Part shown: positions 9 to 10,371 of the stretch, one piece after another
Position numbering within the stretch: the first letter of the stretch is position 1
How the letters are laid out: each line of letters opens with the position of its first letter
Virus record (IMG/VR): IMGVR_UViG_2565956719_000006
Reading direction: 5' to 3' (one strand)
Origin: a virus
Lineage: Duplodnaviria; Heunggongvirae; Uroviricota; Caudoviricetes
Length of the DNA stretch: 10,371 nt
The notes under the pieces: generated by a model
The model's input: the letters and a program-made list of their open reading frames with translations, nothing else
What the model was told of the DNA's origin: nothing
Database searches by the model: none
Program-made: the position numbers and the translations under genes

Positions 9-103
9 AGCAGAAAAAGCTTATTATGCTTCCATCGGAAACGATGATCTGGCAGCCTGAGTTCACAGATAAAACACTCTCCAGGAAACCCGGGGCGGTT
101 CAC
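9..103. repeat. Left copy of a perfect inverted repeat of at least 95 bp (partner 10277..10371)
   Basis: Reverse complement of 10277..10371 is identical to 9..103, checked base by base. Identity breaks at 104 and 10276. The right copy runs to the window edge, so the true length is unknown. Confidence 0.9.
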
Positions 104-186
104 CTCACCGTCTGGTCGGTGTCCTGCTGAGACTTATAACTTCCTGTTTTTGTTGGTGTAGTCCTTACACCGTCCAATCATGATTG

Positions 187-211
187 GCTGGCGGGAGTTG
201 AACCCGAGTCC
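187..211 (-). other. tmRNA (ssrA) 3'-end-like fragment, possible att-core remnant
   Basis: Minus strand reads GGACTCGGGTTCAACTCCCGCCAGC. This matches, with one mismatch, the T-arm and acceptor segment of E. coli ssrA as I recall it (GGACGCGGGTTCAACTCCCGCCAGC-TCCACCA). The terminal TCCACCA is absent. Directly abutting is a perfect 14-bp palindrome CCAATCATGATTGG at 174..187. Confidence 0.3.
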
Positions 212-362
212 AAATATCACTAACTTGATGTAATTAATGATTTTTTCGACATTAACTATCTTGCGGATCTTACACGTATCTTTTACTGTTATATCCCAGT
301 CTTCATAACCAACTATGAATAGTAGATAATCTATAAATCCATCGTATAAGAATGACATCGCT

Positions 363-1274
363 ATGACCATACTGGTACCCCCAAGCAAATTTTGCATTTA
401 CTCAGATGATTCTAGGGCTGGGACATTGAACTTCATCAACTCGATTGAATCGATTGGAGTAAAAAATAAAGGTCGAGTTATAGTTGATTTGTCCAAGGTA
501 AAATTTGCCTCAGCTGCGGCATCGGTACTGTTCTTTGCCATAGTAAATAGAGCTCAATTTTTAACCCGGGACCCTAATTTTATACGTTTTAAATGGCCTA
601 AAAAGGATGATAACCCATCTGGGCATAGATGGATCGTTGGTACTGGACTTGCTCGTGCTTTGCTTGCTGGCACAGAAGAGAAACTGAATGCACTTACGAG
701 GGAGGAACGATACTTTCAGTCAGCTGTCGAACCTTACGAGCATATTGTTGAAACAGTACTCATGCTGCAGAAAAGTGCTCTGCTTAATAATGAACAGTTA
801 GGCTTACTGCTGACAGCGATTAGTGAAGCTTTGCTCAATGTTTCTCATCATGCGTATGAAGATGAGGGGTTCGAGTCAGATATTCAGCTTCTCAAAGGTA
901 AACGATGGTGGCAGTGCGCTTGGTTCAATCGTGATGAAAATAAAGTCGTTTTTATCGTTTGTGACCTTGGATTGGGGATTTATAGAAGTTTCGTGCCTAA
1001 TGGTGATGGTCATAGCATTCAAAACGAAGTATCTTCTGTGGAAAGAGCTATGTTAGTAGGGGAATCCCGCTTTGTTGGTTCCGGACGGGGAAATGGCTCT
1101 GAAGATATCAAGAGACCTATTGGGGCAGGTTGTGAGGATAATGAGACACTTCTGATACTAACAGGAAGGGCTCGTTATAGCTATAATTCTAATGACAGTA
1201 GTCCTCGATGTGAGAAGCTAGCTGAGTACATACCGGGTACTTTACTACAATGGTCGCTGGTTCCCAGGAGATGA
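363..1274 (+). CDS. GHKL-superfamily (Bergerat-fold, histidine-kinase-like) ATPase, anti-sigma/RsbW-like class; possible N-terminal STAS-like segment
   Basis: 303-aa ORF with N-box EALLNVSHHAY (aa 155-165), G1 box DLGLG (aa 201-205) and G2 box GSGRGNG (aa 239-245) in canonical order and spacing. N-terminal stretch VIVDLSKVKFASAAASVLF resembles a STAS core motif. Stop lies 4 bp before the next start. The SD is weak, so the start is uncertain. Confidence 0.75.
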   Translation: MTILVPPSKFCIYSDDSRAGTLNFINSIESIGVKNKGRVIVDLSKVKFASAAASVLFFAIVNRAQFLTRDPNFIRFKWPKKDDNPSGHRWIVGTGLARALLAGTEEKLNALTREERYFQSAVEPYEHIVETVLMLQKSALLNNEQLGLLLTAISEALLNVSHHAYEDEGFESDIQLLKGKRWWQCAWFNRDENKVVFIVCDLGLGIYRSFVPNGDGHSIQNEVSSVERAMLVGESRFVGSGRGNGSEDIKRPIGAGCEDNETLLILTGRARYSYNSNDSSPRCEKLAEYIPGTLLQWSLVPRR

Positions 1275-1278
1275 TTTT

Positions 1279-1605
1279 ATGAGAAATATCGTCATAGCGA
1301 AGGAGTTCTCCAGAACACCTTTCGGACGTTACACAACGGATAGCCCACACAGTGCGGAAAGATTTCGTAGAGAGTTTTTGGTGCCTGCGCTGAAGGGTAC
1401 TGAACAGGAGATTGTGGTTGATTTTCGCGGTATAGCACTGGGTGTTGGTTCCTCTTTCTTAGAAGAGGCGTTTGGAGGTCTCATCCGTAAGGAAGGGATA
1501 CCTAAAGCCAACGTTAAAGCACGTTTGATTATAAAAAGTGATGTTCCGTTCTACAAAGAACAGATTGATAAATTTATTGATTTAGCACAACCAGAAAGAG
1601 TATAA
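1279..1605 (+). CDS. Small STAS-like protein (DUF4325-like), candidate partner or substrate of the upstream GHKL ATPase
   Basis: 108-aa ORF with a good SD (AGGAGA) upstream of ATG 1279. Motif EIVVDFRGIALGVGSSFLEEAFGGL (aa 44-68) fits the STAS / DUF4325 pattern (beta-strand, then a Ser-Ser-Phe helix) as I recall the family. Tight spacing to both flanking genes. Confidence 0.7.
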   Translation: MRNIVIAKEFSRTPFGRYTTDSPHSAERFRREFLVPALKGTEQEIVVDFRGIALGVGSSFLEEAFGGLIRKEGIPKANVKARLIIKSDVPFYKEQIDKFIDLAQPERV

Positions 1606-1615
1606 GAGGCGATAG

Positions 1616-2233
1616 TTGATCAGTACGGAACCAATGTCATTAGTAGCACAAATAGGACAGTATTCGTGGTGTATCACAGTAGTTAGCGTCTGCTTAGTTT
1701 TCATTGGATGGCGAGTTGCGTACAATAATTCTGTAAAACTGGCGACACGTTCTGAATCGAAATCAATTATTGATGCTATTTCAAAGTTAGTTATTGAAAT
1801 TTCTGATATTTCTTCTAACTATTGGCTCAGTCAGACAACTCAACCTAAAATTAGAGCATCAAAGCATCGATTGTTAAGGTTGCAAAAGGATAGAACAAAG
1901 GCTTCTGTTTCATACTTGTTAACTATCTTGGCTAAAGCTCAACAAGTTTCCAAACTGATTTGCATTTTGGAAAGCAGAGGACTGTATATACCTGACGAGG
2001 TGTTCTCATCTGTACTAGAGAAAGCAACTCTGGATTGTGAGGTCGCTCACAAGCTTTCAGATGCCGATCGCCCGGTTAAAGCACAAGAAGTAATTGATGC
2101 TTGTATGGGAGTTATCGAAGCGTTACATACTTCTTTTCAAAGGTACCACCCTCCCAAAAAGGATCGTACCTTTATGCAAAGGTTAAAAATTTGGTTTCAA
2201 ACAGTAGACGATTGGCATAATGACTTAAAATAA
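1616..2233 (+). CDS. Membrane-anchored hypothetical protein (one N-terminal TM helix plus charged soluble domain), third gene of the operon
   Basis: 205-aa ORF starting at TTG 1616 with AAGAGG 6 nt upstream (alternative ATG at 1634 has no SD). Hydrophobic segment YSWCITVVSVCLVFIGW near the N-terminus. Starts 11 bp after the upstream stop. Its 3' end overlaps the integrase 3' end by 9 bp. Confidence 0.65.
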   Translation: MISTEPMSLVAQIGQYSWCITVVSVCLVFIGWRVAYNNSVKLATRSESKSIIDAISKLVIEISDISSNYWLSQTTQPKIRASKHRLLRLQKDRTKASVSYLLTILAKAQQVSKLICILESRGLYIPDEVFSSVLEKATLDCEVAHKLSDADRPVKAQEVIDACMGVIEALHTSFQRYHPPKKDRTFMQRLKIWFQTVDDWHNDLK

Positions 2234-3397
2234 AGCCTTTTTATCCTTGATACTTGCCCTCCCATCATACTCTTTCAAGTATTGTCCATAGTGCCTGAAT
2301 AACATTTCAGGCCCTTTATGGCCCATTTGAGCCGCAAGCCAAAACAGGTTTGCTCCCCGGCTGATATGGCTGGTGGCGAATGTATGCCTGGTTTGATATG
2401 GGTTTCTGTAACGAATACCTGCTTTTCGCAATGTTGGCACCCATGCTTTTTTCCTAATTGCATCAGCACTTGCCCAGGGTTTATTGGTCTTTGGATCTTC
2501 AAAGACAGTAGCATCCTTCATGAATGTAAATGGCTTCTGGTTTATCAACGCCAACATTGCTTCTTCAGTCAGTTCAACTTTACGGGTACCGGCTTTTGTC
2601 TTTGTTCCTTTGATAACTCCGACAACACTTGCGCTCTGAACATGGGCTGTTTTTCCAACAAAGTCGATATCATGCCATCGTAGGGCACATAATTCAGAAC
2701 TACGCAGGCCTGTATGTATGGCGAACCGGAACAGATTTTCCCATTGTTTGTTTCCGGCTGCTGCTAGTAATGCATCAACTTCTGCTGGTGATAGCGGATC
2801 AACCACATAGCTGCTTTCTGCTTCTGACTTATCACTTTGGTAGCGCGAAGCTGTTACTAACGATACGGGGTTAATTTGAAGTACCCCATCGGTCACGGCT
2901 TCATCAAGTGCTGACCGTAGGAAAGATAACTGGTTGCGAATGGTTTTTAAGGTTGTTTTCTGGCTTTGAATCCACGCTTTCAGGGTTGCTGGTGTTAATT
3001 CACTTGCAGGGCAAATGTGAAGTGAGGCTAACGCACTACGGCATTTTTTATAGCCACCAATCGTAGAGGGTGAAAGTTTTCTTGTTTCGCAGATTTCAAG
3101 ATATTCGTCCAGGTACATCTTTACCGTTTTGCTTGCAGCAGCATTACCAAAAATTTTCAAACGAGCAGAACGGGGAAAATATTCTGCATAAATGAATGTT
3201 CCCCTTTCGATCTTATTATGGATTTCGCCGAGTGTACGCTCGGCGTATTTAATGTTCTTTGGTGTTACTTCCAGATTGGAAAGCGGCTCACGACATCTAA
3301 CTCCTTTGTAGGTGAAAGTTATATTGATCGTTTCTCCCTGGTGGTGTTTCCTGATTGTTACGCCGCGCGGTAGTTTGAGCAGTTTTGTCTGGCCCAT
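2225..3397 (-). CDS. int: Tyrosine-type site-specific integrase with N-terminal arm-binding (DUF3596-like) domain
   Basis: 390-aa ORF with GAGG SD. N-terminus LPRGVTIRK...ITFTYKGVRCRE is arm-domain-like. Catalytic box residues are present (TGLRSSEL; HxxR in YQTRHTFATS; LAAQMGHKGPEMLFRHYGQY with the terminal Tyr). Confidence 0.95.
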   Translation of the reverse strand: MGQTKLLKLPRGVTIRKHHQGETINITFTYKGVRCREPLSNLEVTPKNIKYAERTLGEIHNKIERGTFIYAEYFPRSARLKIFGNAAASKTVKMYLDEYLEICETRKLSPSTIGGYKKCRSALASLHICPASELTPATLKAWIQSQKTTLKTIRNQLSFLRSALDEAVTDGVLQINPVSLVTASRYQSDKSEAESSYVVDPLSPAEVDALLAAAGNKQWENLFRFAIHTGLRSSELCALRWHDIDFVGKTAHVQSASVVGVIKGTKTKAGTRKVELTEEAMLALINQKPFTFMKDATVFEDPKTNKPWASADAIRKKAWVPTLRKAGIRYRNPYQTRHTFATSHISRGANLFWLAAQMGHKGPEMLFRHYGQYLKEYDGRASIKDKKALF

Positions 3398-3576
3398 TTT
3401 GCAACCTCACTAAGATCAATCCACCTCTCCTTAACGCCTTCAACCTTTAAAACCTGAACACCTTCACGCCAAACACCGCGCTGTACACGTTTGTTTATTG
3501 CTTCAGGAGTTTCGCCAGTTTCTTTGCAATAAGTTGAGATAGGAACACAATCGAGGTTCAGCATACGTTTCTCCAT
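3358..3576 (-). CDS. xis: Excisionase-like small DNA-binding protein (DUF1233/Xis-like)
   Basis: 72 aa from ATG 3576 (MEKRMLNLDCVPISTYCKETGETPEAINKRVQRGVWREGV...). Overlaps the integrase start by 40 bp, the usual xis-int arrangement. An upstream ATG at 3603 would give 81 aa. Confidence 0.7.
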   Translation of the reverse strand: MEKRMLNLDCVPISTYCKETGETPEAINKRVQRGVWREGVQVLKVEGVKERWIDLSEVAKWARQNCSNYRAA

Positions 3577-3605
3577 TATCCCGTCTGCACACGGGAGCAA
3601 CATTA

Positions 3606-4472
3606 TTAACGAATAGTGTCGTTACTTTGAAGTACAGCAAATGCCATTAATACTTCTAAAGTATATCTTCTATAAAATTTAACAAAACCAACATAGAAAA
3701 CATAGACGAAGAAAAAGCTAAGCATTATTGAAAGTAAACTATAAAGATAATCACTATGAGTACATAATCGATAAATAAAGGTTGGAACTGATACCCAAAA
3801 TGAAATTATAAAGATTAAACATATGTTTCTGCAAAAACCATATAATGCAACATAGTTTTGAATTTTTGTTTGATGTTGTTTTGAAAACTCATAAACATAA
3901 TGATATGCCAATCTGAAGAGATCATCATCAAGTCCGTTTTTATCTTGTAATAATTGGCGATTTGTTATGAACTTTTTCTCATAACCTTCTTTGATCATTA
4001 ACCATGTTGTATTAGCTAAATGAAATGGTAGAGATTGAGAATAACATAGTTTTTGTGTTATAAAATCCCATAGTATTATTGGACATAATACGCATTTGAT
4101 TATGCGATTCTTTATTTTTGTTTTTTTATCAGCGCTTCTCTCATCGCATGATGGGCTACAAATGCTTTCTGAGGTATCTATCAATTTTTTAAATAGATAT
4201 TTGGAAGGATATCCTAATTCTTTATTCATGTATTTTTCGATAAAAAATGCTGACGTGATAGAAATAAAATGTCCAGCTATATAAGATATAATAACTATTG
4301 AAGCGTAGTTCAAAATGCCAAAGATTTGACTTTGACCTCTGAGCAATTCACTTAAGTCAATAACAATATCTAGATCGAATGTCAAACCACAGAAATACAT
4401 TAATAGGATAAAAAAACCACCTGGTATTAAATATCCAAGAAAGTCATAGAATGAGAATGGATTTTGATTCAT
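3606..4472 (-). CDS. Polytopic inner-membrane protein of unknown function (AT-rich moron)
   Basis: 288 aa from ATG 4472, preceded by GGAGAG SD (the ORF-track start at 4496 is 8 codons upstream). About 5-6 hydrophobic helices (e.g. FLGYLIPGGFFILLMYFCGLTF, ICLIFIISFWVSVPTFIY, LYSLLSIMLSFFFVYVFYVGFV). Visibly AT-rich compared with neighbours, with an AT-rich 108-bp upstream spacer. Confidence 0.7.
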   Translation of the reverse strand: MNQNPFSFYDFLGYLIPGGFFILLMYFCGLTFDLDIVIDLSELLRGQSQIFGILNYASIVIISYIAGHFISITSAFFIEKYMNKELGYPSKYLFKKLIDTSESICSPSCDERSADKKTKIKNRIIKCVLCPIILWDFITQKLCYSQSLPFHLANTTWLMIKEGYEKKFITNRQLLQDKNGLDDDLFRLAYHYVYEFSKQHQTKIQNYVALYGFCRNICLIFIISFWVSVPTFIYRLCTHSDYLYSLLSIMLSFFFVYVFYVGFVKFYRRYTLEVLMAFAVLQSNDTIR

Positions 4473-4580
4473 TGTTGCTCTCCAATAATTTTTCAATTTG
4501 TAATATAACCTATATCTATATGTTAATAAATTACTTATATGTTCTTTTATGGCAGAGTTTGAATTCGTACGTGCTGATTT

Positions 4581-5105
4581 TTACGACTCAGTTAACTCTT
4601 TAAAGCGTTCCATAAACATCCCATAGGTATGGCCTGGCGACAGTGGAATAACTTTGAACATCTCTGTTGCCGGGATACCTTCCAGTACGGGCCAGAAAGA
4701 GCCATCATCAAGCCCGAGATCGCGGCGTTCGGTTGCCAGCATGATGAGATCGGCATATTTCACGGGCGTACTCATAACCGGGGGTAACCCGTATTTCTCA
4801 CGGATTACGGCGTCTATTTTTTCTTCCATCCGTTTATAGTCAGGAAGAAGGCGTTTCAGTGGCGCCGGGATGTCCTGGCAATACGCTTCTGTTGCATCAT
4901 GCATTAACGCTTCAAAAGCAAATTCCTGCGGTACCAGTTGGCTGCAAAGCACCGCATGTTGGGCGACGCTGTAGAAATGTGAAAGATGTCCTGCAAAGCG
5001 ACAGATATTTGAAAGAGAAACCGCGATATCGTTAATAACGATGTCGTCTTTATTTATCCTGTCATAATAAAAATGCTTCCCGGAAAAAGTTTTAATAAAT
5101 GACAT
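4581..5105 (-). CDS. yfdR: HD-domain phosphohydrolase (YfdR-like, 5'-deoxynucleotidase family)
   Basis: HD motif context HLSHF...ALMHDATEAY. ATG 5105 has a GGAG SD; in-frame GTG starts at 5117 and 5132 are alternatives. Symbol is from my recollection of the E. coli K-12 CPS-53 yfdP-yfdQ-yfdR cluster (120/274/178 aa), which matches the sizes and order here. Confidence 0.8.
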   Translation of the reverse strand: MSFIKTFSGKHFYYDRINKDDIVINDIAVSLSNICRFAGHLSHFYSVAQHAVLCSQLVPQEFAFEALMHDATEAYCQDIPAPLKRLLPDYKRMEEKIDAVIREKYGLPPVMSTPVKYADLIMLATERRDLGLDDGSFWPVLEGIPATEMFKVIPLSPGHTYGMFMERFKELTES

Positions 5106-6953: not shown

Positions 6954-7466
6954 ATGGGAGCGATTTATGTTAAACGTTTGATTCTGTCGGTAGCACTGAT
7001 AATACCGATAGCATCCAATGCTTCTGATGCTTTGAACCAGCCGAGCAGTAGTCTAAATGATGGTGTTGAGACTTTTTTTATTTCCTGCTTTGATATGCCT
7101 CAGGAAACAACTACTGATATGGACGCTTGTCAGAGAGTTCAGTTAGCTCAGGTTAGTTGGGTTAAGAATAAGTATTCGGTGGCCGCCCTGAATCGTTTGA
7201 AACAAGACAACAAGGATGATCCACAGCGTCTGCAGGAATTAACTGCTTCTTTTAACGCGGAAAGTGAAGCTTGGACAGAATTAATTGAGAAAGCGTCAAA
7301 GTCCGTCCAGGTTGATTATGCAGGAGGAACTATAGCTGGCACTGCAGTTGCATCACGTCAAATTGGTCTTCTGGAATTACAATCCCACGATATCTGGGAG
7401 CACTGGCTACGATTCGAGGACTCAACTCCTCCTCTTTTGCCAGAACCAAAGTTCAAATCTGAGTAA
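6954..7466 (+). CDS. Secreted/periplasmic protein with Sec signal peptide (possibly DUF1311/LprI-like), moron
   Basis: 170-aa ORF with SD GAGGGG. N-terminus KRLILSVALIIPIASNA|SDA is a typical signal peptide. Two Cys in the mature N-terminal part. Own intrinsic terminator downstream. Confidence 0.75.
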   Translation: MGAIYVKRLILSVALIIPIASNASDALNQPSSSLNDGVETFFISCFDMPQETTTDMDACQRVQLAQVSWVKNKYSVAALNRLKQDNKDDPQRLQELTASFNAESEAWTELIEKASKSVQVDYAGGTIAGTAVASRQIGLLELQSHDIWEHWLRFEDSTPPLLPEPKFKSE

Positions 7467-9573: not shown

Positions 9574-10317
9574 ATGAGCACTAAATTAACCGGCTATGTA
9601 TGGGATGGTTGCGCTGCGTCAGGCATGAAGTTATCCAGCGTGGCAATTATGGCCCGCCTGGCTGATTTCAGTAATGACGAAGGTGTGTGCTGGCCATCAA
9701 TTGAAACCATTGCCCGCCAGATTGGCGCGGGGATGAGTACCGTCAGAACGGCTATCGCACGGCTGGAAGCAGAAGGCTGGTTAACGCGTAAGGCGCGTCG
9801 CCAGGGTAACCGCAATGCGTCGAATGTTTATCAGCTTAACGTTGCGAAGCTTCAGGCAGCGGCATTTTCTCAACTGTCAGATTCTGACCCGTCAAAATCT
9901 GACGCATCAAAATCTGCCCCGTCAAAATTTGATGCGTCGAAATCTGGCAAAAAAGCGGGTTTTCACCCGTCAGAATCTGGCGGGGATCCGTCAGTAAAAT
10001 CAAAACATGATCCGTCAGATAAAAAAACTTCTCGTCCGGACGCTTCGCAACCGGACACGCAGACGGCTGAACAGGAGTTTTTAACTCGCCATCCTGATGC
10101 TGTTGTATTCAGCCCTAAAAAGCGCCAGTGGGGAACGCAGGATGATTTGACCTGCGCACAGTGGCTCTGGAAAAAAATCATCGCCCTGTACGAGCAGGCT
10201 GCCGAATGTGACGGCGAGGTGGTTCGTCCCAAAGAACCGAACTGGACAGCCTGGGCAAACGAAATTCGCCTGATGTGTGAACCGCCCCGGGTTTCCTGGA
10301 GAGTGTTTTATCTGTGA
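9574..10317 (+). CDS. Lambda O-like replication initiator (N-terminal HTH domain, low-complexity linker); C-terminus possibly truncated or chimeric
   Basis: 247 aa with SD AGAGG. The Ser/Asp/Lys/Pro-rich linker coincides with the iteron array. The last 13 codons and the stop lie inside the terminal inverted repeat, which begins at 10277. Confidence 0.8.
   Translation: MSTKLTGYVWDGCAASGMKLSSVAIMARLADFSNDEGVCWPSIETIARQIGAGMSTVRTAIARLEAEGWLTRKARRQGNRNASNVYQLNVAKLQAAAFSQLSDSDPSKSDASKSAPSKFDASKSGKKAGFHPSESGGDPSVKSKHDPSDKKTSRPDASQPDTQTAEQEFLTRHPDAVVFSPKKRQWGTQDDLTCAQWLWKKIIALYEQAAECDGEVVRPKEPNWTAWANEIRLMCEPPRVSWRVFYL
9875..10030. repeat. Origin-of-replication-like iteron array with adjacent A-rich tract inside the O-like gene
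   Basis: At least five tandem ~15-bp imperfect palindromic units (CTGTCAGATTCTGAC, CGTCAAAATCTGACG, CATCAAAATCTGCCC, CGTCAAAATTTGATG, CGTCGAAATCTGGC, CGTCAGAATCTGGCG), then CCGTCAG repeats and AAAAAAA at 10021..10027. This mirrors ori-lambda organisation. Confidence 0.7.
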
Positions 10318-10371
10318 ACTCAGGCTGCCAGATCATCGTTTCCGATGGAAGCATAATAAGCTTTTTCTGCT
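10277..10371. repeat. Right copy of the perfect inverted repeat of at least 95 bp (partner 9..103)
   Basis: Exact reverse complement of 9..103. Runs to the window edge. Confidence 0.9.

Follow-up and report, generated by a model that had tools for sequence, protein, structure and literature searches.

The viral record IMGVR_UViG_2565956719_000006 (Caudoviricetes) of IMG/VR comprises 10,371 nucleotides (nt) of DNA, which are referred to here as the window. Close to its left end lie three tightly packed genes on the plus strand, termed A, B and C, which are followed by a convergent integrase gene (Table 1). The trio is located inside a prophage, between attL and the integrase of an ssrA-integrating, lambdoid/SfV-like element of Escherichia coli. 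Its molecular identity is well supported: the cassette is carried by a phage and encodes an RsbW-type kinase fused to a STAS domain, a free STAS-like protein and a helical protein that is anchored in the membrane.

Gene layout and protein architecture

The three open reading frames are present where a preliminary description of the window, made from the sequence alone, had placed them, with gaps of 4 bp between A and B and of 10 bp between B and C. A Shine-Dalgarno sequence (AGGAGA) resides within the last codons of A, 7 nt ahead of the ATG of B, and AAGAGG precedes the TTG start of C by 6 nt. These junction sequences look built for translational coupling of A, B and C, and ATGA-type overlaps between the cassette genes are found in other lineages. 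RefSeq starts C at the ATG at 1634, giving a protein of 199 amino acids (aa), but the start at 1616 is favoured because of its stronger Shine-Dalgarno sequence and because there are homologues in which the Met at this internal position is missing. Since the trio is convergent with the integrase gene and begins 175 bp from attL, it needs its own promoter in the region of the candidate listed in Table 1. A scan of the window against Rfam detected no RNA family. The possibility that A, B and C are chance open reading frames was rejected on the grounds of their conservation and synteny.

Table 1. Coordinates of the cassette and of the adjoining features in the window
Feature	Position	Strand	Remarks
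att core remnant tggCTGGCGGGAGTTGAACCCG	185-206		22 nt; marks the attL junction, with the prophage to its right
Candidate sigma-70-like promoter	302-330	+	TTCATA-17-GATAAT, 33 bp 5' of A; consensus scan
Gene A	363-1274	+	303 aa
Gene A, N-terminal STAS-fold domain	363-728	+	residues 1-122, motif DLSxVxxASAAAS
Gene A, C-terminal RsbW/SpoIIAB-type GHKL (Bergerat) kinase domain	729-1274	+	residues 123-303
Gene B	1279-1605	+	108 aa, stand-alone DUF4325 STAS-like protein
Gene C	1616-2233	+	205 aa, TTG start, single-pass inner-membrane protein
Gene C, transmembrane helix	1661-1723	+	residues ~16-36
Tyrosine integrase	2225-3397	-	Pfam Arm-DNA-bind_2 and Phage_integrase; convergent with C, whose last 9 nt it overlaps
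Excisionase (xis)	3358-3603	-	PHROG phrog_2917, E 8e-45

Conserved motifs and a structural model identify protein A as a cytoplasmic protein of two fused domains, a STAS-fold domain and an RsbW/SpoIIAB-type GHKL serine-kinase domain whose ATP-binding site is predicted to be intact. The residues E155, N159, D201, G203, G205, R242, G243 and G245 do not vary among 26 homologues, which extend down to 41% identity, and they occur in the expected motifs and order, i.e. an N box (E155/N159), a G1 motif (D201-L-G-x-G205) and a G2-like motif (R242-G-N-G-S-E-D), which are retained even in relatives from Acinetobacter and Rhodospirillaceae. The AlphaFold model of A (predicted local distance difference test score (pLDDT) 85.6, predicted template modelling score 0.88) displays the three-dimensional fold of anti-sigma serine kinases in the C-terminal domain and a STAS fold in the N-terminal domain. 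Scores against family profiles are low: A reaches 22.9 bits for Pfam HATPase_c_2 (PF13581), below the gathering threshold of 27.4, and 11.7 bits for the NCBIfam RsbW model, which has a cut-off of 145. A is therefore a divergent relative and not an RsbW orthologue. Some of its homologues carry a precomputed PF13581 match, and the A profile retrieved from the solved structures in the PDB only a marginal match to the N box of RsbW (E 0.76). The assignment of the first gene to the RsbW/SpoIIAB-type GHKL proteins in the preliminary description is borne out by the invariant motifs, while the N-terminal STAS domain had escaped notice there.

This N-terminal domain is recognisable through weak STAS_2, STAS and DUF4325 matches in several members of the A family and through a profile-profile alignment with the B family (probability 66%, E 5.8e-5). 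It carries an invariant Ala where the phospho-serine of STAS proteins stands, within the motif DLSxVxxASAAAS. The alignment of A with B places S58/S59 of B opposite A53/S54 of A; an invariant Ala of A occupies the phospho-site in either register, whether A is aligned with B or with SpoIIAA.

Protein B was correctly described as STAS-like, because it matches Pfam DUF4325 (PF14213) with 51.9 bits at a cut-off of 23. Its homologues form 151 clusters, all of them stand-alone proteins of about 100-125 aa, and among the listed homologues all that are longer than 63 aa carry PF14213. The central motif of B reads G57-[ST]58-S59-F-L-E-E-x-F-G-G-L-x-R70, in which position 58 holds either Ser or Thr and no variation is seen at G57, S59, F60, L61, E62, E63, F65, G66, G67, L68 and R70. 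Judged from these alignments, B is possibly a phospho-acceptor and the STAS domain of A its non-phosphorylatable mimic. Neither B nor the B profile gave a meaningful match to solved structures. B also matches the PHROG family phrog_5816, but only at positions 341-439 of its 441 positions; there may be larger phage proteins with a C-terminal DUF4325 domain, possibly fused to an A-like protein.

Protein C has no family match in Pfam, PADLOC or NCBIfam, and the NCBIfam search likewise returned no family for A or B. The model of C (pLDDT 78.7) is all helical and consists of one long helix, comprising the membrane span and a stalk, followed by four helices; the resulting four-helix bundle carries TLDCE and HPP motifs. 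One N-terminal hydrophobic helix is present in almost all of 36 distinct homologues from viral contigs, in agreement with the single-pass membrane protein with a charged soluble domain that had been proposed earlier. In most homologues 0-1 basic residues precede this helix and 3-5 follow it, a distribution that indicates an N-out/C-in topology and hence a cytoplasmic bundle. The best-conserved stretch of C is a juxtamembrane segment, N-x-x-K-L-A-T-R-S-E-S-K-S, which can be recognised even at 22% overall identity.

Conservation, prophage setting and cargo slot

A word-indexed search yielded 163 clusters of A homologues, and a full profile search 2318 clusters at 50% identity for E <=1e-3 and 1177 for E <=1e-10. 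The order A-B-C is kept in 13 of 13 distinct genome lineages, with Gamma- and Alphaproteobacteria represented among the loci, and in 40 of 40 viral loci of IMG/VR; the scattering of homologues that the preliminary description had named as evidence to the contrary is therefore not seen. Genome loci with this order include Pluralibacter, Budvicia, Rouxiella, Serratia, Cognaticolwellia, Oceanospirillaceae, Enterobacter, Salmonella/E. coli, Klebsiella, Yersinia and Photobacterium. In Acinetobacter baumannii and in a Rhodospirillaceae genome, the gene of a distant B homologue lies between that of a full-length homologue of A (hmmsearch E 1e-27 and 3e-15, respectively) upstream and that of a short protein whose N-terminal helix is hydrophobic downstream. 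The third gene in Haemophilus likewise encodes a shorter product, in which a hydrophobic N-terminal helix precedes further helices, and here the trio is located directly downstream of a cI repressor gene. In the Francisella temperate phage KIRK, the cI repressor gene is followed by genes whose products are a hypothetical protein of 293 aa, a DUF4325 protein of 112 aa and a transmembrane protein of 125 aa (PMC7924643); judged by gene lengths and annotation, these three genes have the same layout as the trio. Within the trio, B is the most and C the least conserved protein.

A, B and C each belong to a PHROG family of unknown function. A tblastn search with A against 50,697 deposited phage genomes gave no match, and the link of the trio to phages is for this reason drawn from prophages, IMG/VR and PHROGs. 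Among 5426 complete E. coli genomes, 129 contain the trio, always as a single chromosomal copy beside an integrase of the type found in the window, and the same integrase family also adjoins the trio in the Salmonella and Klebsiella loci. Two alleles occur in E. coli and Salmonella, with 52, 70 and 42% identity for A, B and C, respectively, next to integrases that are 98% identical. Other copies lie in different surroundings: in Photobacterium the trio forms a lone islet by an insertion sequence (IS) fragment and lacks phage genes within 8 kb on its flanks, the flanking 6 kb of the Acinetobacter trio are also free of phage genes, and one copy sits in a small integrative element. In one locus (L016), C is truncated. 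As stated in the preliminary description, a sigma factor is missing: none is encoded by the window or by the regions flanking the related loci examined. A PP2C/SpoIIE phosphatase is likewise absent among the neighbours in every locus examined, but a distant host phosphatase is conceivable.

The boundary of the prophage was deduced by comparing loci that have the same trio allele and differing left neighbours (csiD/glaH, P4-like satellites or a LysR region). Their left flanks diverge 150-175 bp 5' of A, exactly at TGGTGGAGCTGGCGGGAGTTGAACCCGCG. This sequence and the att core remnant of the window are what we take to be the reverse complement of the 3' end of the E. coli ssrA (tmRNA) gene. In strain SF-173, which carries an identical trio, the prophage reaches 43 kb to the right as far as the annotated ssrA gene, behind which smpB is located. 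The point of flank divergence and the ssrA gene at the far end place the trio inside the prophage, and the possibility that it is host DNA outside the prophage was thereby ruled out. ARAGORN detected no tRNA or tmRNA in the window, because only the 22-nt att remnant is present in it. With an adjacent and convergent integrase gene, the prophage cargo slot proposed in the preliminary description is confirmed.

The same integrase family is found in 412 E. coli genomes, and the slot between attL and the integrase gene is variable. In JJ1886 (sequence type (ST) 131), it contains an adenine methylase matching PD-Lambda-5_B (E 6e-124) and an AAA_15/AAA_21 ATPase. The cargo on the attR/ssrA side of the SF-173 prophage (locus L078, 27497-32591) includes a Type IV methyl-directed restriction enzyme (1415 bits), PD-T4-3 (E 7e-137) and WP_000183405.1, which is the validated system DS-24 of PMC13092281. 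In the circular form of the phage, attP has these defence genes on one side and the trio on the other; the trio therefore belongs to a defence-gene cargo island that spans attP, and it resides in both a defence island and a variable mobile-element hotspot. The SF-173 cargo additionally holds a DinI-like pseudogene and a 97-aa uncharacterised protein.

The slot of CFT073 (L075, 3226-4414) and SCU-101 (L077, 3262-4450) is occupied by an overlapping two-gene unit encoding 271 and 127 aa, for which no Pfam or PADLOC match was found and which is another candidate for uncharacterised cargo in this defence hotspot. In four Salmonella/E. coli and Klebsiella loci (L011, L015, L017 and L020), an Arm-DNA-bind_3 integrase gene lies about 375 bp to the left of A and abuts the same ssrA-type att core. 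This integrase is part of a P4-like satellite (Psu, Ogr/Delta, primase) in L017 and L020 and of another integrative element in L011 and L015; L017 also carries an OLD-like nuclease. These four loci are tandem arrays of ssrA-integrating elements.

Possible functions and relation to known systems

We propose that A, B and C constitute one conserved mobile cassette, which would be expressed in the lysogen as accessory cargo (a "moron") just inside attL. The cassette may operate as a partner-switching module that dispenses with a sigma factor and is tethered to the inner membrane via C. The STAS domain of A, in which Ala replaces the phospho-serine, would be an in-cis pseudo-substrate that cannot be phosphorylated and that occupies or gates the kinase, while B, with its invariant [ST]-S, would be the exchangeable partner and probably the phospho-acceptor. 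C would serve as membrane anchor, and its conserved TRSESK segment next to the membrane might in addition provide either the input or the output. As no phosphatase is encoded, the switch would work in one direction only, as expected of a terminal response.

Protection of the lysogen against other phages, by exclusion or by abortive infection and with a range outside the 24 phages that have been tried so far, is the role that we tentatively favour, with a confidence falling just short of even. The considerations that lead to this role are the defence-cargo island, the swapping of alleles beside a constant integrase, the placement behind cI in two unrelated phages, the patchy distribution and a machine-learning score. 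The wider claim, that the trio represents a new anti-phage or superinfection-exclusion system in which immune signalling proceeds through an inner-membrane partner switch without sigma factor or phosphatase, and which is widespread in temperate phages of Proteobacteria and active beyond the tested panel, is possible and is regarded by us as rather doubtful.

The score originates from the DefensePredictor study (PMC13092281, Science 2026), which lists in its Table S6 a transcription unit "VPUS" composed of WP_000060412.1, WP_001244589.1 and WP_000154254.1. These accessions are identical to the RefSeq accessions of C, B and A, respectively. VPUS has a maximum log-odds of 5.75, was hand-selected in the category "structural defense homolog" and received no DS name (PMC13092281). 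For the assay, the genes were provided with their native upstream region on a low-copy plasmid, and a tenfold drop in the efficiency of plating or smaller plaques were counted as positive (PMC13092281). Neither a domain analysis nor a mechanism or a name for VPUS was found in the main text or supplement of that paper. Literature searches combining STAS/HATPase with anti-phage, STAS-like with defence, and partner-switching with prophage returned nothing relevant beyond the VPUS listing, and the STAS/HATPase-type domains of the trio are not mentioned in two defence-discovery papers of 2026. Of the preliminary claim that the trio is undescribed and corresponds to no named defence system, the second part agrees with the PADLOC search reported below, and the first has to be qualified by the VPUS entry. 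The parts of the trio come from known families and are already listed, and it is the architecture itself that was previously undescribed: a fused STAS-kinase, a DUF4325 partner and an obligatory single-pass membrane protein, sigma-less, phosphatase-less and phage-borne.

Several results weigh against a defensive partner switch. In MG1655 pCV1-VPUS, the unit was scored "defensive = FALSE", a summary flag covering 24 phages, and the authors point out that different phages, hosts or system boundaries may be required for systems that were not validated (PMC13092281). The absence of a phage-challenge phenotype, which the preliminary description had itself named as unfavourable, has therefore occurred once, on a limited panel, and abortive infection or exclusion, as suggested there, is the putative role best supported by context. 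PADLOC-DB 2.0.0 contains no match for A, B or C at E values up to 1. When SpoIIAA was aligned with the profile of the N-terminal domain of A, the alignment was not significant and its phospho-serine fell on A51; the alignment with the B profile was not significant either. The assignment of the phospho-site is based on the 66%-probability profile alignment and on the position of the motif. In the region upstream of A, promoter-like sites are no more frequent than in shuffled sequence. Finally, a fold search with C retrieved no effector fold and only generic helical bundles, designed proteins, four-helix bundles of sensors and talin. These matches were rejected as signs of homology or of sensor function, and the membrane effector of the preliminary description has to be regarded as a guess.

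Alternatively, the trio could be a regulator of lysogenic conversion, which sequesters or phosphorylates a host protein at the membrane and thereby alters the envelope or stress response, biofilm formation or virulence-related traits, comparable to SiaABCD; in this case the trio would not serve to act against phages. We consider this unlikely, while giving it appreciable weight. A single host-specific target is difficult to reconcile with a cassette that spans Enterobacterales, Vibrionaceae, Pasteurellaceae, Acinetobacter, a Francisella phage and Rhodospirillaceae; moreover, its neighbours in the phage cargo are defence genes rather than virulence genes, and output domains, for instance of the cyclase or DNA-binding kind, are absent from the trio. 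An addiction or toxin-antitoxin-like module, in which C or the kinase A would be toxic and neutralised by B and/or the STAS domain of A, and which would stabilise the prophage or islet, appears improbable. It would fit the compact, coupled and mobile organisation of the cassette, including its occurrence as a lone islet in Photobacterium and in a small integrative element, and the truncation of C in at least one locus. In addition, a survey reported transcriptional coupling between a VapC-like PIN group and DUF4325 genes, which suggests that DUF4325 can be a toxin partner (PMC5499597). However, three genes with a 303-aa kinase as the most widespread part (2318 clusters) are atypical of toxin-antitoxin pairs, and the full operon can be cloned in MG1655. 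Toxin-antitoxin-like behaviour would also be compatible with abortive infection, and hence it would not exclude the protection of lysogens.

The position directly after a cI-type repressor gene in Haemophilus and in phage KIRK, together with the classic function of partner-switching modules as developmental switches, could further point to a regulator of the own prophage, which would sense the state of the cell or the membrane and tune induction, lysis timing or superinfection immunity. Such a function is very improbable in our estimate, because in prophages of Enterobacterales the trio lies at the other end from the immunity region and is convergent with the integrase gene, because the Photobacterium and Acinetobacter copies are surrounded by DNA without phage genes, and because this slot is filled with unrelated cargo in closely related prophages, which shows that the trio is dispensable for the phage cycle.

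Partner-switching pairs of a kinase and a STAS protein are textbook regulators of sigma factors. The canonical modules, SpoIIAB-SpoIIAA and RsbW-RsbV, consist of an anti-sigma kinase and a STAS antagonist, and the trio differs from them in that both the cognate sigma factor and the resetting PP2C phosphatase are absent from the trio loci examined. Unlike SpoIIAB and RsbW, its kinase bears an N-terminal STAS domain of its own with Ala at the phospho-site, the partner is a DUF4325 protein instead of a canonical STAS protein such as SpoIIAA or RsbV, a third, membrane-anchored component is obligatory, and the genes travel on temperate phages and mobile islets. Rv1364c of Mycobacterium tuberculosis is a fusion of an RsbU phosphatase, an RsbW kinase and a STAS domain, which has sensor and PP2C domains, carries the STAS domain C-terminal to the kinase and takes part in sigma-factor control. 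In contrast, the STAS domain of the trio is N-terminal, there is no phosphatase, and the set is completed by a second, free STAS-like protein and by a membrane protein. The sigma-less SiaABCD switch of Pseudomonas aeruginosa acts on a diguanylate cyclase; its PP2C protein SiaA and its cyclase SiaD have no counterpart in the trio, the third component of which is a small single-pass membrane protein. The trio resembles RexAB of phage lambda in that both are prophage cargo expressed in the lysogen, adjacent to cI in some phages and made up of a cytoplasmic and a membrane component. RexB is a multi-pass channel-like protein, and the two systems share no sequence or fold relationship; an exclusion phenotype is moreover only proposed for the trio. 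Our literature search found no report of a phage-carried, sigma-less, membrane-tethered partner switch or of STAS/RsbW-type signalling in anti-phage immunity.

The A family, with more than 2000 clusters at 50% identity, is entirely unannotated. It is spread with temperate phages, among them phages of E. coli (uropathogenic and avian pathogenic), Salmonella, Klebsiella and Yersinia. If the trio defends its host, a phosphorylation-based switch would join the known logic of bacterial immunity, and one unvalidated machine-learning prediction would be accounted for. If it does not, the trio would be a signalling device of lysogenic conversion in clinically important lineages. The candidate catalytic and acceptor residues are now defined, and either outcome is therefore open to simple genetics.

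Further genes and repeats in the window

Bases 100-4600 of the window are 100% identical to many ST95-type extra-intestinal strains (UTI89, APEC O1, UM146). The rest of the window constitutes a lambdoid/SfV-type early region with xis, yfdR/Q/P, a cI-like repressor of the LexA family, cro and a replication gene. Between xis and yfdR, a gene at 3606-4496 (minus strand) encodes a 296-aa multi-pass membrane protein of phrog_12528 and lies in a very AT-rich patch, with a GC content of 0.28-0.31 as compared to about 0.45 nearby. The protein weakly resembles Csx27, an accessory membrane protein of type VI-B CRISPR systems (PADLOC E 1.4e-5; NCBIfam 14.9 bits at a cut-off of 65), and it is possibly a second exclusion or defence moron. 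Another likely moron is the gene at 6954-7466 (plus strand), which is oriented opposite to the leftward early region and encodes a 170-aa protein of phrog_7681 with a signal-peptide-like N-terminus. The segment 6123-6803 is GC-rich (0.53) and displays long overlapping open reading frames on both strands; the RefSeq annotation of this segment comprises yfdP and a frameshifted pseudogene.

Perfect inverted repeats of 95 nt at 9-103 and 10277-10371 represent the ends of two IS3-family copies, which bracket a segment of 10.2 kb. One copy is located in host DNA about 80 bp to the left of attL and the other inside the phage replication gene (9574-10317), and two copies at these sites imply that the prophage of the source genome is disrupted. 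The bracketed segment could be subject to inversion or mobilisation.

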